Source of the DNA: Ginglymostoma cirratum
Taxonomy: Eukaryota
Assembly (NCBI GenBank): GCA_024137785.1
Contig: JAHRHZ010000143.1
Location: forward strand, 1-64,000
DNA length: 64,000 nt
Direction: 5' to 3'
The notes under the pieces were generated by a model. It did no database searches. It saw nothing but the letters and a program-made list of their open reading frames with translations, and was not told the DNA's origin. The stretch's first letter is position 1. Each line of letters begins with the position of its first letter. Shown piece by piece: positions 47 through 64,000 of this stretch. The translations under genes were made by a program, and so were the position numbers.

Positions 47-880
47 CCATCACCCAGTTCGCCACACCCCCTTCTCATGCAAGCACAGGAAGTATAATAC
101 CTGCCCAGTTAGCTCCTCCCTCCTCACTATCCAGGGCATCAGGCACACCTCCAGGTAAAGCCCACTTGTACTTCACTTGATCTAAACTAACGTATTTGTT
201 GTTCACAATGTCGTCTTCTCTTCAGTGGGGAGACAAAACACAGACTGAGCGACCACTTTGCAGCACATTCTATCCCTAAAAAATGACCCTGAGCTTCCAG
301 TTACCTGCCATTTCAACACACCAGTGTTCCCAGGCCAACACCTCTGTCTCAGGTCTGCTGCACGGCTCCAGGGAGTATCAGCACAAACTGGAAGAACTAC
401 ATCTCATTTTCCGCTTGGGGACCCTGCAGGCTTCAGGACTCAATACAGATTCATTAATTCCGGGATATCAACACCACTTTCCATGTCCTTTACTCATCCT
501 CCACGCCCCGGGACACGTCATCATCTGGGCTGCATTCAGCACAGCCAAACCATTTTCACTTACATATGATTCCCGTAAGGAGCTTTTCTGTCTGCCTGTT
601 TTGCCATTATCAATCCCTTTGCCTGCAATCTGCCTTTCTCTCCTTCCGGGCTCCATCTCCACCCATTACTTCCTCCTCCTTAACTCCATCCCAAACACCA
701 CCCCAAGACCTGAGCATCTATACCAGCATTCCTGGCTATCATCAGTTCCGAAAACAGGTCATGGACCCAAAATATAAACTCTTGTTATTTTTCCCCCACA
801 CATGCTGCCAGACCTGCAGAGTTTCTCCAGTAATTTGTTTTTATTTCAATTTCCAGCATCTGCTGTTCTTTATTTTATTT
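47..880 (+). mobile_element. Decayed PLE 3' end (GIY-YIG remnant and tail)
   Basis: GETKHRLSDHF...KLEELHLIFRLGTLQASGLN frames; tail tgctgccagacctgcagagtttctccag. Positions 1-42 are the end of another PLE tail. Confidence 0.8.
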
Positions 881-7772: not shown

Positions 7773-7974
7773 TAGGAACTGCAGATGCTGGAGAATCTGA
7801 GATAACAAGGTGTGGAGCTGGATGAACACAACAGGCCAAGCAGCATCAGAGGAGCAGGAAAGCTCGACGTTTCAGGCCATTTCTGAAGGAGGGTCTAGGC
7901 CCAAGACATCAGCCTTTCTGCTCCTCTGATGCTGCTTGGCCTGCTGTGTTCATCCAGCTCCACACCTTGTTATC
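7773..7974. mobile_element. Palindromic 202-bp mini-element made of two inverted PLE tails; perfect 15-bp TSD
   Basis: aatgatttgagagtg at 7758-7772 and 7975-7989. Arms 7801-7878 and about 7900-7974 are reverse complements. Confidence 0.9.
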
Positions 7975-13775: not shown

Positions 13776-14638
13776 GACTTGCTGAGAATTTCTAGCACTT
13801 TCCGAGTAAAGTTGGTTAAGTTGGGAGTGAAAAGATGTAGTGCTTTCAGGAATCAACATTTTTTGGAAAAGACACACATGGAGAAACATGAACACGAAAC
13901 ATCGTTAATATAGCCAGTGGCCCCAAGCTCATTAAGACATGTTTAAACGCCATTATGGCAGACAGTGAAATCTGAATTCAAGAAAATCTGGAATTAAAAA
14001 TTAGTCCAATGTTGGCCATGTAACCAAGGTCGTAAAAAAAAAATCTGACATAAAAGCATCCTTCAGGGAAGGAAATCTGCCATCCTTACAACGTAACTGC
14101 CCACTGAAATAGCCAAGCAAGCCACTCAATTGTATCAAACCACTACAAAGTCTAAAGAAAGGAATGAAATGGACAGACAACCGGGCATCATGCTAGGTAT
14201 CAAAAACAGTAATCAGGCCCTGTCAACCTTGCACGGTATTCCTAGGTTTGTGATAAAATAGGGAGCGCTATTCCAAAAACTAGTCAAGCAACTGGTGACA
14301 TAAATCATCCTCAGAGTGATACCTCATAGACAAGGCCCCAGACACCAGCACTACCATCCCTGGGACAGGATGTACCCAACTGCAGTACGGAAACACCAGA
14401 AGTGACAGTACGATGATATACGGTTAGGAGGAAGTTTCCCAAGGAGTCCTCAACATGGGATCTAGATCCCATAAAGTCTCATAACTTTGGGTAAAAAAAG
14501 GTGGGTAAGGAAATCTCCTCATTACTGCAAACCACCTTGAATCAGTTATGTTGAACACCATTTGGAGGAAGTACCAAGGTTGGCGAGGGCATAGAATGTA
14601 CTCTGGGTGAGAGACTGAGAGACAGAGTAGCTCAGTCA

Positions 14639-14752
14639 GAGATAGCAAGAACTGCCAATGCTGGAGTCAGAAAAAACACAGCAGGCCAGGCAGCATCGGA
14701 GGAGCAGGAAAGATGACGTTTTGTGTCGGTACCCTTCTTCAGAAAATAAAAT
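14639..14752 (-). mobile_element. 114-bp PLE-tail insert
   Basis: Tail plus hammerhead remnant; TSD gctcagtca at 14630-14638 and 14753-14761. Confidence 0.8.
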
Positions 14753-16011
14753 GCTCAGTCACACTATTACCGAGCGAGCTGGATGCATTCTAGAAGGATG
14801 TAGCTGCTAGACTGAGTATACTGCAGGTGGTTAGGGAAGCAGAGGGAAAGACCTATTTGACCTCACCCTCAGTAATCCACCTGCCACAGATATATCAGCT
14901 CAGAACAGTGCCCATGGTAGTGACCACTGCATGTTCTTTGTGGAGAACAAGTCTTTTTCACATCTGAGGCTACCCTCCATCACGCTGAGTGCCATGGTTT
15001 AAACAAATCTAGAAATTCCAAATTAGACATCCAAGGGGCACCATGGGCCATCAACAACAGAATTATATTGAACCACAATGTTGACCTCACTCCTAACTTA
15101 ACCAACCAATCTAACTATTACAATGTAGACAGACAACCAAACCAAATCATCCTTTCTACCTCTGTACTCGCAACACAGTCAAATTAAAGACAAACGAAGA
15201 TCGCCAATTGCTACTCCAATGCTTTCTAACCAGACACTAGAATAACCAATTCTAGACTTTGCAAAAAATTAATTTCATACCTGGTTTTGTATCTTTAAAA
15301 AAAAAGACAATTTATTAAATACACAATAAACTCAGTACAAAATTAAATCACAAGGTGATCAAATAAATATTTATTTTTTAAACCAAAATCATTATTTTCA
15401 GCCCCAATTCACACAAAAGACAGACAAACAAACAAAAACAGATCAGGGACGAATGAAAGAAAATGACAAAACTGACCCGAGTGCTTAAATAGATTCCACT
15501 TGTGTTAATTCACAGGCATAATGTGAATTCCTTGGTTGTTTTTCTGGAAATATGAGTCAGGGTCACTTTTCTCAGTTCACGGACATAAAAACAGTAATAT
15601 TTATAACTCAGCTTTCTACTCTTTGGGGCTTCCAGAAGCTGACGTGCGAGATCAAGCAGGGAGTTTCGAAATCTTCATGCTGCGTCTTTAACAGCCTAGC
15701 TCACCATTCCCAAAAAAAAAACACTACAGTTCAAAGAAACAGCTTCAACTCCGGTCCCATCCCGAGAGACAGAACATCTTTTTAAGATGCCTCGATTACC
15801 ACACCACGTCTGCCATCTGCTTGAATATAGGGTCTCTTCCAGACTTGCCAGAACCAATTCCCATGTACTAACCTTGTTAACAGCCAACTTCTGTTGTCTG
15901 TTTAAACACAATGCTCAGCAATGCGCCTATCGGGCCATACTTGTTAATGGTTCCCTGACCACACGGAAGTTTTTCCAGGAGGTGGAAATATTGAATAAAA
16001 TTATTTGCCCA

Positions 16012-16141
16012 CTGAGGAAGGATCACTGGACCTAAAACGTTTACTCTGTCTTTTCCTTCACAGATGTTGCTAGACCTGCTGAGCTTTTCCAGCAACTTTG
16101 TTTTTGTTCCTGATTTACAACATCCACAGTTCTTTCAGTTT
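16012..16141 (+). mobile_element. 130-bp PLE-tail insert beginning at the hammerhead core
   Basis: Starts CTGAGGAAGG; TSD ttatttgccca (16001-16011) / ttatttgcaca (16142-16152). Confidence 0.8.
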
Positions 16142-17117
16142 TTATTTGCACAATGGTATTTTCACACAGTCCCTGCACTTACACATACATAATGAGTGTT
16201 ACACGCAAAACTCCTTCCAGGATTGTTGTGTCTGTCGGAACCCTTTTATCAAAAATCAGCCTGCGATTAACCTCCAGGTCTGGCCTCACAGAACAAAAAG
16301 TGATTGTTTGATCTGTTCTCTTCCTTTTACCACAAACTGTCCCAAAGTAAACAAGTCATTTTTAGTTCAACTCCCAGTTCACAGCTCCAAACCAAAAATT
16401 TATAAAAGAACAAAAGCGAAAATAATGAAAATAGAATCAGCAAATGTTCTAATATGTTCACTATCACAATTAAGCCAGGAGATCAACCCTGGTTTAATGA
16501 AGAATGCAGGAGGGCATGCCAGACGTAGCACCAGGCATACCCAAAAATGAGGTACCAACCTGGTGAAGCTACTCAAAATTACTTGCAAAGGTAAATCACA
16601 GCCAAGTGATTCCACCAACAACAAACGAGATCTAGGCTCTGCAGTCCTGCATTTTCAGTTGTGAATGGCGGTGGGAGATTAAACAACCAACAGAAGGTGG
16701 GGATTCCACAAATATCCCCATCCTCAATTACAGGAGAGACCACCACATCAGTGTCAGAGTAGGTAGACACATTTGCATCCATCTTCAGGCAAAAGTGTGG
16801 ACTATCCACCTCAGCCTGCCGAGGTGCCCAGCATCACAGCTACCAATCTGATTAATTCCATTTGATTTCAAGAAACAACTGAAGGTCGTGGAAATTATGA
16901 AGTCTATGGGCCTGGATAACATCCACGTTCGTGCTCCAGAACGAGCTCTGCCCCGGGTGTACTGCTACAGCATACATCTACCCTACAATGTGGGTAATTG
17001 CACAGGTTTGTACTGTGCACGAAAAGCATGACAAATCCAACCTGGTCAATTATCACCCAATTAGTATAATCTTAATCATCATACACAGTGCTATCAAGCA
17101 GCACCATCCTTGGTTTG

Positions 17118-17425
17118 CTGGTTAGGCCAGCATTCACTGCCCGTGTCTAATTTCCAAGTGGGCAGTTAAAAGTCACCCAAGTTACTGAGGGTCTGAAGTT
17201 AAATGTATGCCACACCAGGTAAGGATGGCAGTTTCCTTCCCTAAAAGGACATTAGTGAACCAAATGGGTTTTTCCAACAATAGTCAACAATTGGACTCTT
17301 AATTCTAGATCTTTTAGTGAATTCAAATTCCATGTTTTGCCATGGCAGGATTTGAACTCAGGTCCCCGGACTATTACCTGGGTTCTGAATGATCAGTCCG
17401 GTGATAATACCAGTAGGCCATCGTC
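17118..17425 (-). mobile_element. tRNA-derived SINE, second family, nested in a LINE
   Basis: Reverse-complement homolog of 6468-6826. Confidence 0.8.
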
Positions 17426-18264
17426 TCCATTAAGTTGTACTTAGCGCAATAGATGCCATTCACAAAACTCGAGTCCTGAAGCAATCTCTATCCATGTGCA
17501 GCAAGGCCTGGACAACATACAAGCTTGAGCTGATAAGCTGCAGCAACTTTCACACCAACTAAGTGTCTAATCAATGACCACCTCCACTTGACATTCAGTG
17601 GTATTACCATCACTGAGTCCCCCATTACTGACATGAACATTGACCAGAAACTGAACTGGGCACAGATACTGTGACTAGGAATTCTGTGGTAATTAACTCA
17701 CTTGTGTCTTCTCAAAAACTGTCCACCATCTACAAGCCTCGAGTGTGGTGTAATACCTCCCATTTGTCTAGATGGGTGAAGATCCGTAAAACTCAAAAAC
17801 CTTGACACCATCCAGCCCATCCACCACTTTCAACTTTCACAAGAAATAGGCCATCTGGCCCCTTGAGCCTGCTCCACCTGCCTTAAAACATGCACCAATG
17901 TAGCCTCAACTGCTTCACTGGACAGGGAATTCCACAGATTCACAACCCTTTGGCAGTCCGTCACCCTCTCTACCATTATTGCACAGTGACTGCAGCATAT
18001 TCCATCAATGCAGTACAGCACAACACAACACAGACCCCTTTAACAGCACCTTCCAAACATAACTTCAACCCACCTAGAAGGGCAAGGGCAACCAATAAAT
18101 AGGACCACAACCACCCTGCAAGATTCACTGCCCCCGCTCGTCCCAGGCCATCCTGACTCGGAACTATATCATCCAGTCCTTTGCTGTTGCTGGATTGAAA
18201 ACCTGGTACTCACTTTCTACTCTTAAACCCAAAATTTGGTTAAACAGCCCTGATTAAGGAGGGC

Positions 18265-18392
18265 AGAGATAATAGGTACTGCAGATGCTGGAGAATCCGA
18301 GATAACAAGGTGTGGAGCCGGATGAACACAGCAGGCCAAGCAGCATCTTAGGAGCAGGAAAGCTTGACATTTCGGGCCTAGACCCTTCATCA
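18265..18392 (-). mobile_element. PLE-tail insert truncated inside the hammerhead core
   Basis: Near-identical to the reverse complement of 34229-34355; similarity stops at (C)TGATGA. Confidence 0.82.
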
Positions 18393-18578
18393 CTTCCTTT
18401 CTAAAAGCACCTTGGGTGGCCCTACACATCGAGGGCTGCTAACATCACCACCTTTCCAGGGTAATTACAGATAGGGATCCATTTCTTTTTATTCGTTCAG
18501 GGGATGTCTGGTTGATTTCACTGCTCCAGAAAAACTGAAATAAAATACATTCTTCCAAACAAGCTTTGCAGAATTATT

Positions 18579-18665
18579 CTGAGGAAGGGTCACCGGACCC
18601 AAAATTCACAGGTGCTGCCAGACCTACTGAGCTTTTCCAGTAATTTCTGTTTTAGTTCCTGTGTC
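18579..18665 (+). mobile_element. 87-bp PLE-tail insert beginning at the hammerhead core
   Basis: Starts CTGAGGAAGGGTCACCGGACCC; TSD tgcagaattatt (18567-18578) / tgcagaattgtt (18666-18677). Confidence 0.75.
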
Positions 18666-20099
18666 TGCAGAATTGTTTCAGGCTTCAACACAACATACCT
18701 CTGTCAGAATATTTCATGTGGTTGCCCTCACAAAATTAATATGTTTAGACTTGTATTTGTTACAGGCCTCCAATTTACACCTTTGAGGCAGGTTATGGAG
18801 GCCCAATCTATTCGAGTTCCAACAACTGGAACAAGGGATGGTGGGAATATGCAAGTAGAGTTATCATCACTCAACATCTACATACACCTACACCCAGGAT
18901 CTATGCACAGAAATGAAAAAAAAACAGGAACGTATGCAGTTTTGCTTCCGTCTAACCAAAAGTCACTAAAAAATGACCTGTAGCATTATACCCAAATTGT
19001 AGGTCAAAGATTAGTTAACTCGATCTAGAAGTCAAACCGCAGGCATTAATGATATACAACACAATATCGTTCATTCACCCACCGAATCAGTCATGGTACT
19101 GTTATCTGGTTCAATTGACAGGAAGAAAAAAAAAAATCAGGCTATAAAACAAATCATTTGTAAGTTATCTTTAACAAATACCCAAGGAAGGAAAATATGG
19201 GCAGCATTTTTTTAAAAATACATGTAACGCAGAGATATGTTCACAAAGATAATATTAAAAACTGCTACGTCAAATCTAGCATTGACACTAGGAATTAGTG
19301 AAGATCGCATGCTTCAGAATTAGACAGATATGCTTCTTGTCCCATAATTCCTAACCTCAATTGTGTCCACCAGTTCAAGTATTATATTGTTCAAAATATC
19401 CCCAAAGGACAAAACTAAGTTCAGAACAGCAAAAGTCATTAGACCGGTATTACTTTCCCTCTACGATTCAAAATCAACAGTATAAATAAACCATATGCCC
19501 ACCATTGTGCCATACCGAAATTTAGAATGGAAGCACTGAATGCAGAAGCATTAAAATTTAACACACTAAACGGTGAAATTCTAGTATCAATGCCACAAGT
19601 CAGAATACATAACTGTCATTTATGCAGTAGCTACTGTATAAAAGAGGTGCACTGATCTTCTCCAAAAATATACATTTTTTTCGAGCGTTCATTGTTTATT
19701 GTACTCGTGAAACAATTTTACAGCTCGTCCCCTCTTAAATAAAACCTAGCTCAACACGATTTCCTATATTTAATACATCTTTCAACCCAAAAAAAAGTGC
19801 AACTATATATGCATCAGAATATTCACTACAGAAACAGCTACCGGACATTCATGGACAGGTGCTCAAACCTCTGACCAACCTCACCCCCCAAAACAAAATT
19901 ATAACACCAACAGACTTATAACCCTTTGACACGACCCAATTTTCACCTCTTTCTATCCTTTTGCATATACTTAAATTGCAGCATTTCTAAAATGCTGGAA
20001 CAACCGCATTGCTATTTGCTATCAAAAACTCGAGCTTGTGCTTCCCTCGACCCCACTTCAGTTCTCCATGCATTTGGAAAGTCGCTTCTCCACAAATGA

Positions 20100-25889: not shown

Positions 25890-28680
25890 CAGAACATGAG
25901 ACATAGGAGACCCTACAGTCCCCTAAGTTCAGCCTCAACTCCACTTTCCCATCAGCTCCCTATTACATTTGATTCTGAGAGTTCAAAAATATGTTTATTG
26001 AAGACTTAGATCTATCCAATAATGGAACATCCACATTTTTCCTGGGTGAAAATTCCAATGCTTCACAAGCCTTTGAGTGAAAACAGTTCGCCTTATCTCA
26101 GTATAAAATGATCACACATTCTCAGACTGTGTTCCTGTTCTCTCAACTGCCCAGCTGGGGAAAACAACATTTAAGACTGTATTCTGTCAATTTCCTTCAG
26201 AATCGTGACTGTTTCAATGGGATCGTCTTTCATCCATCTAAACTCCAAACAGCATAGGCTTAATTTACTCAGTCTTTCATCATAGGACAACTTCCTTCAT
26301 TCTAGAGACCAGTGTAGTGGTCTTTCATGCTATCATCTCCAAAGCAGGTATATTCTTTCTTAAATATGGAGACGAAAACTCCATTCCAAGTGTGGTCTCA
26401 CTCAAACCTGGACAATTGTAGCAAGACTTCTTCATTTCATTACTTCAGCTCCTTGCAATAAAGGCCAACATGCACATAATCTTCCAAATTGCTTGCTGTG
26501 TTTGTATGCTAACTTTGTGTTCCTTCTTGGAGTGCACCCACATGTTGAGTGACATCAACATTCAGTTTGATGCCTTTAAAAAAGTCTGCTTTTCTATTCT
26601 TACAGCCAAAGCGAATAACCTCATATTTCCCCATACTGTATTTGATCTGCCACTATGTGGCCCACTCACTTAACATGTTGATATCTCTTAACACCCTCTT
26701 TGTGTCCTCCTCACAGGTTACACTGCCACCTAGCTTGGTTTTATCAGCATTACGCTCAGTCTCTTCATCTAAATCATTAAGATGGTTGGTGAATATCTGA
26801 GACCCAAGCACCAACCTTTGCAACACTCCTCTAGATACAGTCTGTAAGCTTGAAAATTCACTTTTATCTGTACTTTTTACTTGCTTTCTGTTCATCACTC
26901 ATGTATCCATGCAAATATATAACCCCAATTCTGTGACTCCTAATCTTGTATATTAAACTTTTGTGTGGCTTTTACTGAAAGCCTTTTCAAAATCTAAGTG
27001 TACTACATGTAATAATACCCCATTCTCTCCTCTACAATTTTCATCCTCAAAAACTCTAATGTATTTGTCAAGAGATAGCAAGAACTGCAGATGCTGGAGT
27101 CAAAGACAACACAGTATGGAGCTGGAGGAACACAACAGGCCAAACAGCATCAGAGGAGCAGGAAAGCTGACGTTTCGGGTCAGGACCCTTCTTCAAAAAT
27201 GGGGAGGGGGATGGGATCTAGGAAATAAATAGCGAGAGGACGGGTGTGGCAGGGGAAGGTAGGTGGAACGGTGATAGGTGAGTGGTGGGGACTGTTCAGT
27301 GGGATGGGTGGGGCGGGTAGGTGGGAGAGAAGACGGACAGATTTTGTGTCAGGTCAAGGAGGCGGAATTGAGAAGGAGGCTTGGACATGAGATGAGGCTG
27401 GGAGTGGGGAGATTTTAAAACTGGTAAATTCCATGTTTAGGCCATCAGGCTGTCAGCTCCCCAGATGGAATATGAAGTGCTGCTCCTCCAGTTTGCAGGT
27501 GGTGTCATTGTGACACTGGAGGAGGCCCAGGATTGACATGTCACCCAGGGAATGGGAGTGGGAGATAAAATGGTTGGCGACCAGAACGTGTTGTAGTTTG
27601 TCATATATAGAACGCAGATGCTCTACAAAACGGTATGCAAGTCTATGCATACCTTTGCAAGTCTATCAGCTCACAGATATAGAGGAGGCCACATCAGGAG
27701 CAGTAGATATAGTAGACCAAGTAGTAGACAGACGTGCAGGTGAACCCTGTTGGATATGGAAGTTTTGTTTTGTGCCTTGAATGGAGGTGAGGGGGGGAGC
27801 TGTAGGAGCAGGTGTTGCACTTCCTGTGGTTCCAGGTAGAGGTGCCAGGGGTGATGGGGTTAGTGGGTGTGGTGGGGGTAGTGGGGACTGTGGAGCGGAT
27901 GAGGGAGTCGCAGAGAGAGCAGTTCATACAAAAGGCAGATACGGGTCAGGAGGGAAATATTTCTTCGTTTGTGGGGTCGGATTGTAGGTGCCGGAAGTGA
28001 CGGAGAATGATACGTTTGTTGCGGAGGTTGGTGGGGTGATTTGTGAAGACAAGTCTTTATTGACTTTCTCCAATTATGCTCACTCTGCTTTAATTAAGTG
28101 CATTGTTAAAGCTTCCTTAACAAGAGATTTCAGCAATTTCCTGATGTCCAATTTCAGACTAACTGACCAGTAGTTCTGTTTTCTCTCTCGCCCTCCCTTC
28201 TTGGATTGCAGAATTACAGTTTCTAAATTCCAGCCCTCTGGGGCTGCTCTACAATCTAGGGAATTTTGCAAAACCCTAACCAGTGCATCTGATATCCTGC
28301 AGCTACTTTTAGAACCCCAGGATGTACCCATCAGGTGCTGGGGTTTTTATGCCTCATTATTTTTTTTCTGCTGATATTAATTACTTTAAGATCCTCACTC
28401 TTTTTAGCCTTTTTGTTATCCATCTCCTATGTAATTTGTGTCAGTCTACTGTGAAGACAGAACAAATTATGTGTTTATTGCCTCTGCCAGTTTCCCTTTC
28501 CCTGTGACATTTTCTCCCATCTCTGCCACGAAGGAACAAACAGTCACTTTAGCTTCTGTCATGTCATTTTTGTACATGAAAAAGCTCTTGCAATTTGTTT
28601 TCATGTTATTGACTACTTCCTCCCATATGCTAATTTTCACATTTTATTAACAATTTGGATTCCCTTTGCTGATACAATTG
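25890..28680 (-). mobile_element. CR1 LINE, decayed, split by a PLE
   Basis: VSRGVLQRLVLGSQIF...NDLDE...ADKTKLGG RT motif; KKGGRERKQNYWSVSL. Confidence 0.85.
27070..28040 (-). mobile_element. Neptune-type PLE 3' fragment nested in a CR1 LINE
   Basis: GIY-YIG remnant (RLAYRFVEHL...VANHF...MSILGLLQC...EEQHFIFHLG) plus the family tail. Imperfect TSD atttgtcaaga/atttgtgaaga. Confidence 0.88.
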
Positions 28681-29418: not shown

Positions 29419-29550
29419 GGAGACAGTAAGGACTGCAAATGGTGGAAGCTAGCGTCAATAAATGTAGAGCTGGAAAAGCACAGCTGATCAGACAGCATCT
29501 GCGGAATAGGAAAGTCAACGTTTCAGGCCAAAACCCTTCGTCAGGACTCT
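29419..29550 (-). mobile_element. PLE-tail insert with hammerhead
   Basis: Diverged tail of the same layout; weak flanking repeat cttatggc/cttacggc. Confidence 0.72.
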
Positions 29551-32330: not shown

Positions 32331-32460
32331 TCATTTAGTTTCTCACTGCTATGTGGAAGAATTGCAAACTGCAAATAAATGAGATGAGAATAGGTTATAG
32401 ATAACAAGGTGTGGAGCTGGATGAACACAGCAGGCCAAGCAGCATCATAGGAGCAGGAAA

Positions 32461-32496
32461 GCTTGACGTTTCGGGCCGAGACCCTTCTTCAGAAAT
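32461..32496 (-). ncRNA. Minimal hammerhead motif (intact core, weak stem I)
   Basis: CUGAAGA-A-GGGU-cucg-GCCC-GAAA-CGUC. Confidence 0.7.
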
Positions 32497-34224
32497 GGGG
32501 TAGGGGAAGAGGGTTCTGAAATAAATAGGGAGAGAGGGGGAGGCGGATAGAGGATGGATAGAGGAGAGGATAGGTGGAGAGGAGGCAGACAAGTCAAAGA
32601 TGCGGGGATGGAGCCAGTAAAGGTGAGTGTAGGTGGGGAGGTAGGGAGGAGATAAGTAAGTCCAGGGAGGACGGACAGGTCAAGGGGGCAGGATGAGGTT
32701 AGTAGATAGGAGATGGGGGTGCGGCTTGAGGTGGGAGGAGGGGTTAGGTGAGAGGAAGAACAGGTTAGGGAGGCGGGGACGAGCTGGGCTGGTTTTGGGA
32801 TGCGGTTGGGGAGGGGAGATTTTGAAGCTTGTGAAATCCACATTGATGCCATTGGGCTGCAGGGTTCCCAGGCTGAATATGATTTGCTGTTCCTGCAGCC
32901 TTCGGGTGGCATCATTGTGGCATTGCAGGAGGCCCAGGATGGACATGTCGTCTGAGGAATGGGAGGGGGAGTTGAAATGGTTTGTGACTGGGAGGTGCAG
33001 TTGTTTGTTGCGAACTGAGCGCAGGTGTTCTGCAAAGCGTCCCCAACCCTCCGCTGGGTTTCCCCGATGGAAAGGAGGCCACAACGGGTACACCTATTCC
33101 CAATTCCTTCGCCTCCGCTGCATCTGCTCCCAGGATGAGGCATTCCACTCCCGTACATCTCAGATGTCCTCATTCTTCAAGGACCGCAACTTCCCCCCCG
33201 CAGTGGTCGAGAACGCCCTCGACTGTGTCTCCCGCATTTCCCACAACTCATCCCTCACACCCCGTCCCCACAATAACAACCAAAAAAGAATCCCCCTCGT
33301 CCTCACGTACCACCCCACCAACCTCCGGATCCAACGCATCATCCTCCAACACTTCTGCCATCTGTAATCCGACCCCACCACCAAAGACATTTTTCCCTCC
33401 CCACCCTTGTCTGCTTTCCGGAGGGACCACTCTCTCTGTGACTCCCTTGTCCGCTCCACACTCCCCTCCTGCCCCACCACACCCGGCACTTTTCCCTGCA
33501 ACCGCAGGAAGTGCTACACCTGCCCCCACACCTCCTCCCTCACCCCCATCCCAGGCCCCAAGAAGACTTTCCACATCAAGCACTTGTTCACCTGCACATC
33601 TGCTAATGTGGTATACTGCATCTGCTGTACCTGTTGTGGCCTCCTCTACATCGGGGAAACCAAGCGGAGGCTTGGGGACCGCTTTGCAGAACACCTGTGC
33701 TCGGTTCGCAACAAACAACTGCACCTCCCAGTCGCAAACCATTTCAACTCCCCCTCCCATTCCTCAGACGACATGTCCATCCTGGGCCTCCAGTAGTGCC
33801 ACAACGATGCCACCCGAAGGCTGCAGGAACAGCAAGTCATATTCAGCCTGGGAACCCTGCAGCCCAATGGTATCAATGTGGATTTCACAAGCTTCAAAAT
33901 CTCCCCTCCCCCTACTGCATCCCAAAACCAGCCCAGCTCGTCCCCGCCTCCCTAACCTGTTCTTCCACTTGCCTATCCCCTCCTCCCACCTCAAGCCGCA
34001 CCCCGATTTCCTACCTACTGACCTCATCCCGCCCCCTTGACCTGTCCGTCCTCCCTGGACTGACTTATCGCCTCCCTACCTCCCCATCTACACTCACCTT
34101 TACTGGCTCCATCCCCGCCTCTTTGACTTGTCTGTCTTCTCTCCACCTATCCTCACCTCTATCCAACTTCTATCCGCCTCCCCCTCTCTCCCTATTTATT
34201 TCAGAACCCTCTTCCCCTCCCCCA

Positions 34225-34258
34225 TTTCTGATGAAGGGTCTAGGCCCGAAACATCAAG
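34225..34258 (+). ncRNA. Minimal hammerhead motif (core intact, stem III altered)
   Basis: CUGAUGA-A-GGGU-cuag-GCCC-GAAA-CAUC. Confidence 0.65.
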
Positions 34259-36424
34259 CTTTCCTGCTCCTATGATGCTGCTCGGCCTGCTGTGTTCATC
34301 CAGCTCCACACCTTGTTATCTCAGATTCTCCAGCATGTGCGGTACCTATTATCTAAGAATAGGTTATAATGTTAATGCCTCTCACTGTTCACTAGCAAGA
34401 TTCTTGTGTTACTGTTCAAACCTTGGGGGCAAAATCAGAACTTTCTTTGCCAACATCAAGCATTTAAATTTTCCAATCTCACTGTATTTTCCCAACTCAC
34501 TCACCATTGCCAACATTGTTCAGGAGCTAGGAGGATTCTGCCCAGGTAATTGGTAGGATACTGCAGACATAAGTGACCAGTTTAGAGCTTTTCTAAAAAT
34601 CCATTCTTTCTTTTTGTATCAACATTGGTGTGTTATCTTTCACGCAATAAATTATATCATTTTCCTGCAGCAATGTGCAGACAGCAATGAGCAGCAAACA
34701 CTTCAGAAGATCAGCCATTATTGTACTGAGTGACCAAGCAGGCTGAACAGGCCATATTACCTACTCCTCGTCTTGTTTTTATATTCTTAAAATAACGTTC
34801 TGGAATACAGTATCGGAGGAATTTGAGACATAATGTACTTAAGAGATCAGGTGACTTTAAACTGATGATTTCAAGATGTTTTTACCAGTGGCTGTTTTTC
34901 TTGACTCTTGGTGAATGTATTGTAGATAATTGTTAGAGATTTATTGCCATGATTTGTCAATAACTCCATCATTGTTATATCATGTAACTATCAGAATTGT
35001 AAAAGGTACATTAGGTGGGCTATTGTATATGTTCACCATACAAATCCTATAGTCTCTGCAGTTAAGATTTGTAATTTTATTTAATATATTTTGTTTTTGT
35101 GTTGCCTGTACAGGATCAAAAATAAAAATATAATAAAAATACAGGAATAATTAATCATTTCAAATTAGTTGTTAATTTTTGTCTCCATGTAAAATATACT
35201 TCTCACTACGCATTAAATAGAACTGAGCGAATTCTGCTCTCAGACTCCCACTGTTGCCACTTATACAAGCATATGAATAAGGAAGTCTTTCAGTCCCTGA
35301 AGCTTCTCTATTCTAAATATGGTTCAGTAAGGATCTTTATTTCTTTCCTGTTGGGAAAATACTGTGTACTTCCTGGGTTTAGCAGCTCAATAGCATCTAA
35401 GGGAAAGCTGCTACATGCAGTGTAAATGGACACTTGAGTTCCACTTCAGTTTTGCACCTGAATAACATTGGAGCTAAATTTCCTCTTTTTTTTTGAAAAT
35501 AGTGCCTGACTGTGTCTGATAATGTCAGTTTTATATAATTGAAGGTTAGAGATCTATGGACTCAGATTTCAATTTGGAATGTTGAGTCTAGTTGAAACTA
35601 AACAGCTCCTAGAAAAATCTGGCACAACAGCTTGCAGTGCCTGGGCTTCCCCTGAACCACTGACAGCTGCTCCCTCCTAAACAATATGAAACGCATCAGA
35701 AAAAACAAGTGGAAGCTGGGTCTTTGAACGCATTCAAAGCAAGATAGGTTTTTAATATTCAAGGAAATCAAGGGTTATGCAGGTTAGACAGGAAAGTGGA
35801 GTTGAGACCACAACCAGATCAGCCATGATCCCATTGAAAGGCGGAAAAGGCACAAAGGATCAAATGACCTATTCTTGTTCCCAAGTCCCATCTTTCTACG
35901 TAGAATGTTCCATGTCTGTACCGTCAACTTTTATACAGAGACATGTTTCCCCTGTTCCTCGACCTGCTGCTTTGGCACAATGACAACACTCCCTCATCAG
36001 CTGTCTACAAGGTCGATGACAGAGGTCCAATTAAATATTATGCCAAGTTTGGATTTCAGTTCCAAGTCCATCCATGCCACAGCAGTACAAACCTATTCAC
36101 AAGGGACGGAAGCTTTGAACGAACATGACAACCTCCAACATGTAAATCATGACTGCCAGCATATATAAATTACATCAGAAACAAAGGACAAGCCATTCTT
36201 AAACGTTCAGATAGAAATCCCATAACTGGACAAAATCAAAAGGTTGACTGTCCTATAGGGCTTTCATTGATTGTATGTGCTCCTTTCATGGTACTGATGC
36301 TACTAAGGTCTAAAATGAGCTTTCAAGATGGCACCAACACAAGGCAATTCTCTGCGAGCTCTCTACAGCAGATCCTATTCTCACATTTCTTACAATCATT
36401 GCACAATTTTCTCTGTCCAATCAC

Positions 36425-46140: not shown

Positions 46141-46452
46141 GCTGCTTGGAACTTTCACTCCTAACAAACATCCCTTTCCTCTGAAATCCATGACTGACCA
46201 CTTCTAATCAGGTTTCTGCCCTTGCCATTCCATCAGCAGTACACTGCCTATGACTGTGTTCATGGTAAACCATGCCACCGCATCATTCTTGATTTGGCTG
46301 TTGCCTTTGGCATGAATAATTATACCATCTTCTCCAATGCCTTTCCTCCTTCATTCAGATGAATGAAATTGCCCACAACTATTTCCATATTTATTTCTCA
46401 AATCACAGTCAGCGAATCACCTACCATTACTTGTCTCTTATGTACCACTACT

Positions 46453-47493
46453 CTATTGTTTTGGAGTAGATCTGTAGCTCGGGTTGTGGGTGTTGAGGTT
46501 GGTTGGCTCGCTGAGCTGGTTTGTTGTTTCGCAGACGTTTCATTACCGTGCTGTGTAACATCCTCAGTGCAGCCTCTGGTGAAGCGTCGGTGTGTTTTCC
46601 CGCCTGGTTTTTAAACTCTGGGGTCCGTTGAGATGGATTGCCTCACTTCCGGGTTTCCTCCCTAGTGGAATGTATATGGGGTCAAGTTCAATGTGTTTAT
46701 TAATAGCATGCTTCGTGGAGTGCCATGCTTCCAGGAATTCTCGTGCCTGTCTCTGCCTAGCCTGTCCCAGGATCTTGGTGTTGTCCCAGTCGAAGTCGTG
46801 GTTCTCCTTGTCCATGTGGATTGAGATGAGTGAGTATTGGCCGTGTCCTTTTGTAGCCAGTCGGTGTTCATGTACTCGTGTTGTTAGTTTCCTTCCTGTT
46901 TGTCTGATGTAGTGTTTCTCGCAGTCTCTGCAGGGGATCTTGTAGATGACATTGGTCCTGTCCATGGCAGGGAGTGGGTCTTTAGCTCGGGTTAGCACTT
47001 GTCGTAGGGTTGACGTGGGCTTGTGTGCCACTCTGATGCCCAGCAGTCGTGGGAGTCTTGTGGTGAGTTCCGACAAGTTCCTGATGTAGGGTAGTGTGAT
47101 GAGTGTGTCGGTGCGTGTAGAATCTTTCTGATGCTGTTCCTGTAGGCATCTCCTGACCCAGTTCTTTGGATATCCATTATCCTTGAAAACCTGGAAGAGG
47201 TATTCTTCTTCCTCTTGGCATAGTTACCATAGTACAGTGTGCTGTTGCCCTTTTAAATAGTGTTCGCACGCAGCTTCGTTTGTGACTACTGGGATGGTTA
47301 CTATTGAAGTTCAGTACCTGGTTTGTGTGTGTGGCTTTAAGGTGTACTTTCGTTTGCAGTTCCCCATTTGTCTTGCGCTCTACCATGTCGTCCAGGAATG
47401 GGAGCTTTTTGTTCTTCTCTTCTTCTCTGTTGAATTTTATTCTGGTGAGGGTGTTGTTTATAAGTTTGTGTGTCTCCTCTAATTTGGTCCATT
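46453..47493 (-). mobile_element. Penelope-like element (Penelope/Poseidon-type), 5'-truncated
   Basis: ORFs 47177-47542 (RT: IKFNREEEKNKKLPFLD...KATHTNQVLNFNSNHP) and 46564-47076 (GIY-YIG: NVIYKIPCRDCEKHYIRQTGRKL). Flanking direct repeat taccactact at 46443-46452 and 47494-47503. Confidence 0.92.
46530..46571 (-). ncRNA. Minimal type I hammerhead ribozyme motif (intact core)
   Basis: Minus strand UGCA-CUGAGGA-U-GUUAC-acagcacg-GUAAU-GAAA-CGUC-UGCG: 4-bp stem I, 5-bp stem II, GUC site. Confidence 0.82.
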
Positions 47494-54863: not shown

Positions 54864-55125
54864 AATAAAAACAGAATGAACAGCGGATGCTATAAGTCAG
54901 GAACAAAAGCAGAAGTTGCTGGAGAAGCTCAGCAGGTCTGGCAGCATCTGAAGAAGAAAACAAAATCAGAGTGAATGTTCTGGGTCTGGTGACCCTTCCT
55001 GTGAGGAGAGGTCATTAACTGTTTTGTTATTCCTTCTACACAGATGCTGCCAGACCTGCTGAGATTTTCCAGCAACTTCTGTGTTTTGTTCCTGATTTAC
55101 AGCATCTGCAGTTCTTTTGGGTTTT
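54864..55125. mobile_element. Palindromic mini-element from a second PLE tail family, TMEM192 intron 1
   Basis: agaagttgctggagaagctcagcaggtctggcagcatctg mirrored by cagatgctgccagacctgctgagattttccagcaacttct. The arms meet at broken hammerhead cores near 55000. Confidence 0.8.
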
Positions 55126-56754
55126 ATAACCTATGCAAGGATATGAGAAAGAGGAATCCAGGATAAGAACAAAAGACAGAAAGAGAAGTAAGAAAAGTGA
55201 TGGTTAGAGAAATCAAAGGCTAGCATCAAACAAGACTACAGTGAAAATAATAGAAACAGGACACCATTAAAAGAAAAGGCCTAAGGTGTTGTGCCTTAAT
55301 GTGTCAAGCATTGGCAATTAAGTGGATGAATTAATTAAACAAATAGGTGAAAGTGGGTATGATATTATCAGGATTACAGAAACCAAGCAGCAAGGTGACC
55401 AAGGATGGGAAACAAACATCTATGGGACTCTGTATTTAGGAAGGACAGACTAAAAGGAAAAGATGGTGGAGTCGTACCTCTGGTTAAAGGAAATATTGAA
55501 TGCAATACTGAGGAGGAGTATTAGCTCTAACCATGTGGAATCTGAAGAGCTGAGTAACGCTAAGGGGCAAAATACATTGGTGGTTGTATGTAGACCCCCA
55601 AACTGTAGGGGTGATTTTGGAAATGGCATTAAACAGGAAATTAGATTCACATGCAATATTGGAATATCTGGAACTTATGGGTGACTTTAATCTGCATATA
55701 GATTGGGCAAATCAAATCAGAAGCAACACTGTGTTGTGGAGGAATTCCTGGAGTGTATACAAGATAATTTTTTCCACCAATATGTGGAGGGACCAACTGG
55801 AGCCAGAGTAATTAAAAAAGGAATAATTGGCAGTCTAGTTGTGCGAAGCCCCTTGAGGACAAGTAAGGATAATATGATCATTCTTCATCAAGCTGGAGAG
55901 TAATGTAGTTGATTCTGAGATGATAGTCCTGAATCTAAATAGACAAAACTATAATATTATGAGATATTGACTGATGGATTGAGCAATTTTATTTAAAGGG
56001 ATGACAATAGCAAACATTCAAATGACAGGCAGTGACTAGTGGGGTAACATAAGGATCGGAGTTTGAACCCCAGCTATTTGCAATACATGTTAATGATTTT
56101 AGATGAAGAAACTAAACATAATATCTCCAAAATTGCAGATAACACAAAGCTGAGTGGGAAGGTGAACTATGAGGAGGATGCAGTGATGCTTCAGTGTGAC
56201 TTTTTAAAAAATTTTGGCGAGCTAAGTGAGTGGGCAAATGCAGTATAATGTGGTTAAATGTGAGGTTATTCACTTTTTGGTATCAAAAATGGGAAGCTTA
56301 TTATGTAGATGGCTATAAATTGAAAGACAGAAATGTTCAATAAGACCTGGGTGTCCTCATACACCAATGGCAGCAGGTAAGCATGCATGTGCAACAGGCA
56401 GTGAAGAAAGCAAATAGTATGTTGGCCTTCATAGTGACAGGTTTCAAGTACAAGACCAGGGACGACCTGTTGCAATTATACATGACCTCTTGTGAGACCT
56501 TGCCTGGCATATTGTGTGCAGTCCTAGTCTCCTTAATTGAGGAAGGAAGAGAGTGCAGCGAAGGTTTACCAGATTGATTCCTGGGATGGCAGATCAGAGG
56601 TTGAAGCAGTCAGAATTGTATTTGCTGGAGTTCAGAAGAATGAAAGGAGCATCTCAGAAATCTATAAAATTTCAAAAGGACCAGACAGAGTAGATACAGG
56701 AACAATCTTCCTGATAGAAGGGGAATCCAAAATTAGGTGTCACTGTCTAAGGAT

Positions 56755-62301: not shown

Positions 62302-63377
62302 GTGAGGAAGTAATTGCCAGGATAAGGGTGTTTGGGTACTTAACTAATACCTATGACATGCAAAGTTCCTTGGAGGATAAAGGCATCACCTGATACACTG
62401 TTAAGTTATGTGGATTTGAAAATCACATTTGCTTGCATTCTCATACAAGAGAATGCTCTGCTTTGAAGGTAGAAAGTGGTAACACACCTTGAACTGCAAA
62501 CTAACTGGAGGAGATAGCAAAATTCTTTCTGTTGCAGCACACTGAACTGGAAAGAAGTTTGCTCCAGTCATCTTGCATCATTTTGAGGTGGTGGCCTTCA
62601 GCAAAATATCACTAATCTCCACATCTAGCCAAATGTATACATACACTTACTTCTCGGATATGGTGTAAAAACTTTGTAAACTACTCCATGGCATAAATGG
62701 GGCAGTTATTTCATGCAGGGGATTCTGCTTATAACACTGTTACATCATGTTGTAGAAAATTGCGCTATAGAAATAACGGGGCTTATAGGAAAAGTGAGGT
62801 TAAGGGCAGACCACCAAAAAACGTCACTCAAAATCACAGAAAATTCTTCCTCATCACTCTCCCATAAGTATTGGTGCCATGTCCGTCACTTGTGTGAGCC
62901 TTGAAACTTCTAATCAAATAAAATCTATTCACTTGCAACATAGTCTGCATCACAGCCTAGCCCATTGCTGATCTGACTTGACATTCCGTCAGCACAGACT
63001 TCTGGATAGATTGTCAGATAAGTGAGGCAGAGGAATCTGACCTTTCTTCCGTATGTAGCCCATTGACATTGAAGTTAATTGTTGGATTAAAATGTGTGAT
63101 AAACCTGAGTAACATTGTATTCAAAATAGTGCTGGTAAAGAGCAGGTTGTAACAGACAACTTATTTTGTTATAAATGATTTACATGGGCAAGTTCAAAAG
63201 TTCTCACATATTTAATATGTAACAAAATCTAGGCAGAAATAATACACACAAAGGTGCATGTTTTATCAGCATTCATTATTTTAAACTATACTTCATTAAA
63301 TGCCAAAAAGTGTTCAGCATAAACTCTTCAAACTAAGACGTCACGTATTTTCTTAATAAGACAATTGTTCTCTATGA

Positions 63378-63549
63378 GATAACAAGGTGTAGAGCTGGAT
63401 GAATACAGCAGGCCCAGCAGCATCAGAGGAGCAGGAAAGCTGACGTTTTGGGTCTGGACCCTTCTTCAGTGGATCTCTCTCCCACTGCAACCCTCTTGTA
63501 ATCACCTTGTTATCTCAGATTCTCCAGCATCTGCAGTTCCTACTGTCTC
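63378..63549. mobile_element. Inverted two-arm PLE-tail mini-element in TMEM192 intron 3
   Basis: Minus arm 63378-63469, short filler, plus arm 63503-63549. Imperfect TSD tgttctctatga/tgttctctgtaa. Confidence 0.82.
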
Positions 63550-64000
63550 TGTTCTCTGTAAGAGATTTCATTTGAGGTTTATGACATACAATCCAACTAC
63601 CATTTTCAAATGAGCTCATTATGTCTTACTCTGAACATTTTCAATCCTAGTAGGTGGTGTTTTAAAAAAAAAAGGAAATTTTTCTTTGACAAAGCCCGTG
63701 ACATCAATGCTTACTCGATGGAATCACGTTATAGCTAACACAAGTTCGCGTTTTAGAAATAATGTTTCCCCTATTCATCAATTGCGTTATATCCAATTCG
63801 CATTGCTGGAACACATGTTATTAGCAGAACTCCCTGCAGTGTAAATGGAATAGTTACTTCAACTCTTAAAGACTGCAGCTGACCTTTGCAGCATCATTTC
63901 CTGAAGCACTATGAAAACGATATTAACAAAGTGAGTGTTTTTGTTGTTACTAACAATTGCTATTACAGTGCTGAATCTGTTTGTTTTTTTTCTTGTCAAA

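Follow-up and report, generated by a model that had tools for sequence, protein, structure and literature searches.

Short hammerhead-bearing inserts of Penelope-like elements in Ginglymostoma cirratum end just upstream of the ribozyme core, probably at the start of a capped RNA

The window analysed here, a stretch of 64,000 nucleotides of Ginglymostoma cirratum (contig JAHRHZ010000143.1), contains several short inserts that begin near the core of a hammerhead ribozyme. Positions are numbered from the C of the core CTGANGA (+1), negative positions lying upstream, and junctions in the window were set by alignment to long copies. Two plus-strand inserts of family A lie between target-site duplications (TSDs), as the initial annotation had reported. 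The first (16012..16141) extends from +1 to the tail end at about +130/137 and is flanked by an 11-bp duplication with one mismatch (TTATTTGCCCA at 16001-16011, TTATTTGCACA at 16142-16152). The second (18579..18665) spans +1 (or -2) to roughly +102 but has lost about +26..+45 internally, and with it the cleavage triplet; it is flanked by a 12-bp duplication, again with one mismatch (TGCAGAATTATT at 18567-18578, TGCAGAATTGTT at 18666-18677). A start exactly at the core C had been claimed for both and holds for the first; since the terminal TT of the second duplication equals element positions -2 and -1 too, that junction resolves only to -2..+1.

Two further junctions align where they had originally been placed, one nucleotide inside the core for a minus-strand family B insert without a called duplication (18264..18392, +2 to +130) and at the core for a family B insert at 63375..63551, whose +1 lies at 63469 on the minus strand and which continues into an inverted segment derived from the ORF-start region and the tail. 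Other junctions are indeed near the core, at positions that differ from those first given. The one assigned to 29550, 4-6 nt before the core, aligns to 29546 (near -2) in a minus-strand, B-related insert of type C (29425..29546) that was aligned without a long copy of its own type. The one at 14752 belongs to a minus-strand, B-related insert (14639..14752) with a 9-bp duplication recognized by eye at 14753-14761 and 14630-14638; it had been put 10 nt before the core because about 7 nt of A/T filler had been counted, and homology begins at -3 (14745). In the inverted family B pair at 7773..7974 the 7878 junction, described as about 5 nt before the core, joins a plus arm from -6 (7877) to a minus arm from +16 (7878), and in the inverted family A pair at 54864..55127 the arms, described as starting 1-3 nt inside the core, align from +4 (55000, minus) and +2 (55002, plus). 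By itself, the CTGANGA motif occurs in the window about as often as expected (46 vs 43).

The inserts are indeed pieces of the pseudo-LTR of Penelope-like elements (PLEs) with minimal hammerheads, as first proposed. A long inverted insertion of family B (32399..34354), our reference for the upstream pseudo-LTR, carries a plus-strand ORF remnant (33368..33796) with a CxxC linker and a GIY-YIG endonuclease (Pfam PF01541, E 2.8e-4, 21.6 bits, just below the curated cut-off of 22.6), and its orientation identifies the hammerhead strand as the sense strand. The hammerhead predicted at 34228..34261 (plus) has the core CTGATGA, stem II, GAAA and a cleavage triplet ending at +28, decayed in this copy. 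CUGANGA, stem II, GAAA, an NUH triplet and a short helix I characterize the predicted ribozyme as a minimal type I hammerhead, and an Rfam scan of the window returned no model at its gathering score. The 5' strand of helix I occupies -4..-1 in family A and -3..-1 in family B. The unit consists of pseudo-LTR, hammerhead, tail to +130 and an ORF start at +168; the stretch -4..+130 is repeated at the 3' end, which makes the element terminally redundant, and 3' ends fall into two peaks, near +95 and +130. RT motifs, recognized by eye in natural copies, precede the GIY-YIG domain, and pseudo-LTRs, inverted 5' segments and an optional 30-40 bp tail are present. Judged by these sequence features, the elements belong to a class already described, the EN+ PLEs, and their CxxC-type motif likens them to the Neptune clade as described in PMC8557442, by features rather than by an RT tree.

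In line with what had been proposed from the window, the junctions are not random across the genome. In a systematic sample of 140 stretches of 10 kb (1.4 Mb, of which 825 kb unmasked), 229 of 230 copies were mapped, and 35/50 core-reaching copies of family A and 29/62 of family B ended at -6..-1. The end rate per base was 0.163 (A) and 0.104 (B) there, compared with 0.0029 (A) and 0.0018 (B) over -300..-11 and with 0.011 (A) and 0.012 (B) over +1..+40, an enrichment of about 57-fold over the upstream rate. The expected peak therefore exists, but its mode is -3 rather than the core C and a wall stands at about -5, so the pile-up lies just upstream of the core and not exactly at it. In both families the wall is one-sided, with a tail of ends toward 3'. 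Arms of A and B together amount to about 267 per unmasked Mb of the sample, and 64/220 end at the wall. The same wall appeared in 87 young copies collected with downstream-only queries (13/20 main arms reaching -1 in A and 12/32 in B ended at -6..-1). Arms of inverted pairs make up about half of the copies with clean upstream DNA (64/146) and are not simple TSD-flanked inserts. Among 38 ORF-linked copies reaching -1, 17 start at the wall, 18 run seamlessly upstream and three were assigned to neither class; the loci L347 and L209 each hold two segments ending at -5..-3, one of which continues into the ORF start. Ends do not peak at the ribozyme cut (within 3 nt past it, 0 in A and 4 in B vs 2.5 expected), which bears out the earlier statement that cleavage does not account for the junctions. 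Head-to-tail re-initiation was likewise not apparent, a direct tail piece preceding the short copy in only 1/209 cases. In the literature covered, outside which lie subscription papers and Repbase, we found neither such a pile-up nor a trace of a copied cap reported for PLEs.

In Pol II core promoters, a TATA-like box precedes a pyrimidine-A start by about 30 nt, and this layout is found in both families. Family A has TATAAA at -33 in 4/4 long references, with two other TATA-like matches in 5.2 kb. In family B, TATTTAT at -35 is the sole TATA-like match in 1,050 nt, although this motif joined the scan post hoc, after it had been noticed. In the reference copy it occupies 34193..34199 (plus), its first T lying 31 nt before the putative start within the initiator-like CCATTT at 34222..34227 (plus), where the A at 34224 (-4) and the second C at 34223 (-5) are the candidate start bases. 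The distance from TATA to start is 29 nt in A and 31 nt in B, with an initiator-like A at -4, and the spacing is preserved in older subfamilies; short copies lack the TATA box. This arrangement points to a transcription start of A and B element RNA at -4/-5, which is also the 5' edge of helix I, so that position alone cannot separate promoter from ribozyme. A transcription start was an option absent from the initial annotation.

Full-length L1 5' ends carry an extra G, the cap being copied as G. Exact counts over the whole genome gave 1120 occurrences of G-ATTTCTGA and 1095 of the same string preceded by A or T, that is, a G share of 51% before the A at -4 compared with 25% from flank composition. 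In the analysed loci a G adjoins 20/41 ends at -4/-5 and 11/87 other ends (P 2e-5), and long copies have G at that position in 1/59 (B) and 0/22 (A) cases. Such an excess is the expected trace of a copied cap. Duplication-resolved junctions, of which few were informative, included no clean extra G. Among copies ending at -3, 23/32 have T at -4 (41% expected, P 3e-4). Non-templated addition of G and T also occurs in R2 in the absence of a cap, according to the accessible part of PMC13000458, and the extra G is thus not proof of a cap.

We consider it probable that the short A and B inserts are PLE pieces whose junctions at -6..-1 arise from a capped Pol II RNA starting at -4/-5 and, in all likelihood, from run-off of the RT at its end. 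The TATA-like box and initiator would direct initiation to the 5' border of helix I. By analogy with in vitro data on an anole element, +95 and +130 may represent two internal reverse-transcription starts; the protein would prime within the 5' one of the two redundant stretches, or on RNA of a solo pseudo-LTR, and only 100-135 nt would be copied. At the cap, the RT could add a C opposite it and so leave the genomic extra G, or it could stop one base short and add an A, which would appear in the genome as T at -4. Where both DNA strands have primed such a cDNA, the two may join head to head to form the inverted pairs. The products would be strong-stop-like inserts, and short copies, lacking the TATA box, would be dead ends. 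Against this model stand the mode at -3, not -4, the rarity of direct tail-to-core junctions (1/209), and Drosophila Penelope, which is TATA-less with a start further upstream (PMC2377424). Family D, a control family discussed below, carries TTTAAAA at -48, yet its ends at -28..-1 exceed expectation only weakly (6 vs 3.0, P 0.08). Moreover, RNA from -4 cannot template the ORF-linked copies that continue seamlessly upstream, and a second route is needed.

Retroviral minus-strand strong-stop DNA is primed near the RNA 5' end and runs off to the cap. The short cDNA here would, in contrast, be target-primed and stay in the chromosome, with neither tRNA primer nor integrase. A tentative and rather doubtful extension is that the -4..+130 redundancy is used like a retroviral R region: transcription would start exactly at the first base of the ribozyme, short inserts would be strong-stop cDNAs left stranded, and in the remaining half of events the end of the cDNA would transfer by homology to the 3' copy, continue upstream and rebuild the promoter-bearing pseudo-LTR seamlessly.

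Alternatively, a barrier at helix I formed by RNA structure or by a bound protein, or a weak hairpin (-30..-22/-8..+5), could stop 40-65% of RT passes along a longer RNA, like the template boundary of telomerase. The wall falls on the 5' strand of helix I, young A and B copies are predicted to form the hairpin, 3' copies (12/32) and ORF-linked copies show like stop fractions that suit a constant barrier, and in A a minor cluster of ends at the base of stem II on its 3' side (+23..+26) comprises 8/26 ends of +11..+60. However, older long copies no longer form the hairpin (0 to -1.6 kcal/mol) while they keep the TATA spacing, and in B it should stop the RT at +5/+6, not at -3. An extra G is not predicted, and stutter repeats at the wall are not in excess (2/111 vs 8/534 control windows). 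Family D also speaks against a barrier, being a control without pile-up that is represented in the window by a minus-strand PLE copy at 46440..47400 (core 46561-46567, upstream limit approximate). Its predicted folds are strong (stem II mean -6.3, upstream fold -6.9 kcal/mol), with stems equal to or stronger than those of A and B, yet 0/37 main arms and 1/10 inverted arms end at -6..-1, as counted with collinear references because shared inverted arms confound otherwise. These arm counts do not support the original suggestion that the folded ribozyme blocks reverse transcription, and neither does the position of the wall 5' of the whole fold, which a polymerase moving 3' to 5' has by then already passed. 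Overall, a barrier on longer RNA appears distinctly unlikely.

An RNA 5' end at -4 could also be produced by splicing, at a branch point or by a nuclease, hence by processing instead of initiation, which we judge very unlikely. In Drosophila virilis the intron extends to the 5' boundary of helix I (PMC4209133), a CAG occupies -5..-3 in family A with CTGAC 22 nt upstream, and a branch at A-4 would halt the cDNA at -3, the observed mode. Family B, however, has no AG in the 20 nt upstream, no acceptor follows A-4 at branch-point distance, and reference-free clustering of 146 upstream flanks revealed no common first exon. RNA contigs, whose RNA type was guessed and whose depth does not mark a start, contained no GT-AG joint among the joints listed, and the extra G favours a cap.

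It is extremely improbable that the short copies form an independent, self-copying family of non-autonomous, hammerhead-headed retroposons of ~100 nt, the distinct class considered at the outset. They are very numerous and have ends in common, 14/66 non-inverted short copies have duplications compared with 0/62 control windows, and non-autonomous PLE derivatives are known from the available part of bioRxiv 2026.07.22.740005. On trees of 90-nt alignments, which have limited power, short and long copies are nevertheless intermixed, with label changes as in shuffles (A 9 vs 10.3, P 0.14; B 26 vs 27.9, P 0.27); no short-only clade with diagnostic substitutions emerged, and every alignment column is common to both. 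The wall is shared by several subfamilies and by copies that continue into the ORF, and short copies lack a TATA box. An alignment artefact, by which upstream homology merely drops between subfamilies, has a negligible chance: older subfamilies do differ upstream and local alignment misplaces ends in deleted copies (18579 scored +46), but it is refuted by reference-free flanks (64 inverted arms and 46 unique among 146), by duplications adjoining the junction and by the same wall in young copies of 95-99% identity.

EN+ Neptune-type PLEs are alike in RT with C-terminal GIY-YIG, linker cysteine motif, pseudo-LTR hammerhead, inverted 5' segments, 5' truncation and optional 30-40 bp tail; the part of PMC8557442 at hand describes variable 5' truncation, whereas a fixed 5' wall and a putative cap trace are features of the copies here. 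Poseidon PAc of Anolis carolinensis likewise has two internal reverse-transcription starts that define the tail, and both DNA strands are cut and extended; its main template is uncleaved RNA, with no reads ending at the ribozyme cut in the accessible sections, and its ORF starts within the hammerhead rather than at +168 (PMC11167929). Drosophila virilis Penelope also has promoter and start in the pseudo-LTR, and partial tandems form the active unit, like HeT-A. Its internal promoter is described as TATA-less, with a start 46 bp before a 75-bp intron ending at helix I (PMC2377424, in part), whereas A and B have a TATA-like box, a putative start at helix I and no intron seen. Pen2a of Adineta vaga shares a putative TATA box and initiator in the pseudo-LTR and head-to-head palindromic junctions, explained in the available text by self-priming on an antisense template, whereas our data fit a sense, capped one (PMC3846280). 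Non-LTR retrozymes are also short hammerhead-bearing sequences from PLE pseudo-LTRs, but the accessible account has them as tandem arrays of hammerhead units (bioRxiv 2026.07.22.740005), and we rejected this identity since the copies here are dispersed monomers and inverted pairs without a lineage of their own, with a direct tail piece in the single case among 209.

These results bear on PLE replication in vivo, namely on which polarity the template has, what the hammerhead does and how the pseudo-LTR arose. If the proposed start is right, the genome records a large share of insertions copied from sense, capped and uncleaved RNA, in agreement with the anole in vitro result in the part of PMC11167929 available, which argues against cleaved, circular or antisense templates for wall-ending events. 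It would also yield a base-exact start site, make PLE promoters mappable from DNA alone by wall and extra G, and explain a major repeat class of this genome. Should the R-region-like transfer prove true, it would supply the missing mechanism of pseudo-LTR regeneration.

We found that copies of two families of Penelope-like retrotransposons (PLEs) share a 5' wall at the hammerhead, a real feature in a known element class. The families carry our own labels A (core CTGAGGAAGGGTCAC) and B (CTGATGAAGGGTCTAGG; variants C and E), with D as a third, and positions are counted from the C of the core CTGANGA as +1, the preceding base being -1. From the genome searched (289 contigs, 4.36 Gb), the sample for the chance test comprised 140 evenly spaced 10-kb stretches, with 575 of 1,400 kb masked; it held 230 copies, 229 of which could be placed by comparison with panels of natural long copies. 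Among copies reaching -1, an end at -6 to -1 is seen in 35 of 50 for family A and in 29 of 62 for family B, where masking censored 6. Counting both arms of inverted pairs, the end rate per base is 0.163 (A) and 0.104 (B) at these positions. Upstream it is 0.0029 (A) and 0.0018 (B), and at +1 to +40 it is 0.011 and 0.012, the downstream rate being inflated by local alignment that misplaces ends in deletion-bearing copies. The pooled histogram of ends has its mode at -3, falls steeply past -6 and has a long downstream tail. Restricted to non-inverted uncensored copies, the count at -6 to -1 is 15 of 42 for A and 10 of 45 for B. When 146 clean upstream flanks were sorted without a reference, 64 came out as inverted arms, 46 as unique, 30 as long A/B and 6 as long D, which agrees with the mapped ends. 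Target-site duplications could be assigned to 14 of the 66 short copies that are not inverted and to 0 of 62 control windows. A second sample of 87 young copies, retrieved with queries covering +35 onward, reproduces the wall: of the main arms that reach -1, 13 of the 20 in A and 12 of the 32 in B have such ends, with 11 B copies censored by masking. Within the window, the inserts at 16012-16141 and 18579-18665, which the initial annotation described as starting at the core, are present with their 11-12 bp duplications, and the remaining junctions it named map to -6 to +4.

On the hammerhead strand, long copies encode a reverse transcriptase (RT) ORF with a cysteine motif in the linker and a GIY-YIG domain; by this anatomy A and B belong with the Neptune-type PLEs. 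Their ORFs are about 65% identical. Near-full-length B copies read pseudo-LTR, hammerhead, tail to +130 and ORF from +168, which places the stretch -4 to +130 at both unit ends. General PLE structure is taken from PMC8557442; minimal hammerheads in pseudo-LTRs and dispersed single copies were already described (PMC4209133), as were retrozymes as PLE derivatives in tandem (bioRxiv 2026.07.22.740005). In the 140-stretch sample, 3' ends form two peaks, near +95 and +130, matching two internal reverse-transcription starts of an anole element in vitro (PMC11167929). The main ORF of the anole element begins inside the hammerhead, whereas that of family B begins at +168, preceded by a 14-codon upstream frame opened by an ATG within the core (window 34231-34275, +). 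The B ORF also contains an Ala/Asp/Thr/Pro-rich tandem-repeat linker between the N-terminal region and RT that differs from copy to copy (L282 oriented 2853-2990, L291-L295). Further long PLE copies, of family A and an older B-related subfamily, lie in the window at 150-880 (+) and 27072-27793 (-). Two crossed searches yielded 39 ORF-linked copies: 17 end at -8 to -2, 18 run on upstream, 1 ends at +4 and 3 are uncalled. Copies running into the ORF can thus also begin at the wall. Two loci (L347:1183-1777; L209:1464-1941) each hold two direct segments ending at -5 to -3, the upstream one with 340-490 nt of the ORF start, followed by a short one. We read these as template jumps, landing at about +494 and +338, and the enzyme seems to have arrived twice at one end.

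The initial annotation had proposed that the folded ribozyme blocks RT. Family D has predicted stems as strong as or stronger than those of A and B, yet in its 39 young copies none of the 37 main arms that reach -1 has an end at -6 to -1 (Fisher P 3e-8 versus A, 3e-5 versus B), which argues against a block, D being an imperfect control because it is a separate PLE lineage with a different enzyme. Family D carries TTTAAAA at -48 and shows a slight surplus of ends between -28 and -6 (L306-L344); it may start at around -13 to -17. A weak hairpin of -30 to -22 with -8 to +5 is predicted for young A and B and is gone from older long copies. A weak upstream inverted repeat can base-pair with helix I in A and with the core in B (window 34198-34232, +; L115:1590-1690, -) and is not conserved in older subfamilies; it could silence the ribozyme in read-through RNA and leave it active in RNA that begins at -4. 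The second proposal, an independent short family, is not supported either: on trees of +6 to +95 short and long labels are intermixed, with 9 label changes versus 10.3 shuffled in A (51 short, 11 long) and 26 versus 27.9 in B (44 short, 41 long), and no column of these alignments telling short from long survives correction, the power of the trees being limited by the short alignments. Cleavage, already doubted in the annotation, does not explain the wall, as ends after the cut show no peak (A 0, B 4 versus 2.5).

Long A copies carry TATAAA at -33 and TCAGTT with its A at -4, and long B copies TATTTAT at -35 and CCATTT with its A at -4. By consensus motifs we take these to be TATA-like and initiator-like; TATTTAT joined the scan only after being seen. 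The TATA motifs are almost the sole TATA-like matches in the 1.0-1.3 kb upstream element, and their spacing is maintained in diverged subfamilies. A putative TATA box and initiator are described for a rotifer Penelope (PMC3846280). Genome-wide, the base before the exact 29-base B stretch from A-4 is G in 1120 matches versus A or T in 1095, a tally of matches alone that covers the classes G, A and T; flank composition predicts 25% G. At individual loci, G adjoins 12 of 18 ends at -4, 8 of 23 at -5 (B 8/13, A 0/10) and 11 of 87 other ends, and occurs at that position in 1 of 59 (B) and 0 of 22 (A) long copies. T stands at -4 in 23 of 32 copies ending at -3, a pattern spotted post hoc that fits an untemplated A added after a stop one base early. 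In L1, the cap is reportedly copied as G. Addition of untemplated G and T does not require a cap in R2 (PMC13000458), whereas the G of A and B is specific to position, adjoining 12 of 79 ends between +5 and +40.

Alongside the observed anatomy, wall, its absence in D, motifs and G and T biases, we consider the following mechanism probable as a whole. Polymerase II would start the RNA at -4/-5, where helix I has its 5' edge; priming by the protein would take place at +95 or +130, either within the 5' copy or on solo pseudo-LTR RNA; RT would run to the cap and leave an insert of 100-135 nt; and priming from both DNA strands would give head-to-head pairs. In the rotifer Penelope, head-to-head junctions were read as antisense-RNA self-priming (PMC3846280). 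Seamless upstream continuation, seen in about half of the ORF-linked copies, lies outside the run-to-cap account, and direct tail-to-core junctions are rare (1/209). Read-through multimers, circles or homologous transfer within -4 to +130 could supply the seamless copies, and the data do not choose between them. No GT-AG intron occurs among the joints listed for RNA contigs, which carry no start signal. Just 3' of the cut, families A and C contain what looks like a strong splice acceptor (L115 oriented +31 to +52; window 16041-16064, +, and 29493-29517, -), made up of branch-like TTAAC/TTGAC, pyrimidine run, CAG and ATG. Where a copy sits in an intron, this stretch could trap host splicing; no matching donor fits within the short leader. 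None of the papers listed by our literature searches describes a fixed 5' wall in PLEs or a trace of the cap, and supplements or subscription papers could hold such a report. Together, the wall and the proposed cap trace are likely a new read-out of PLE replication.
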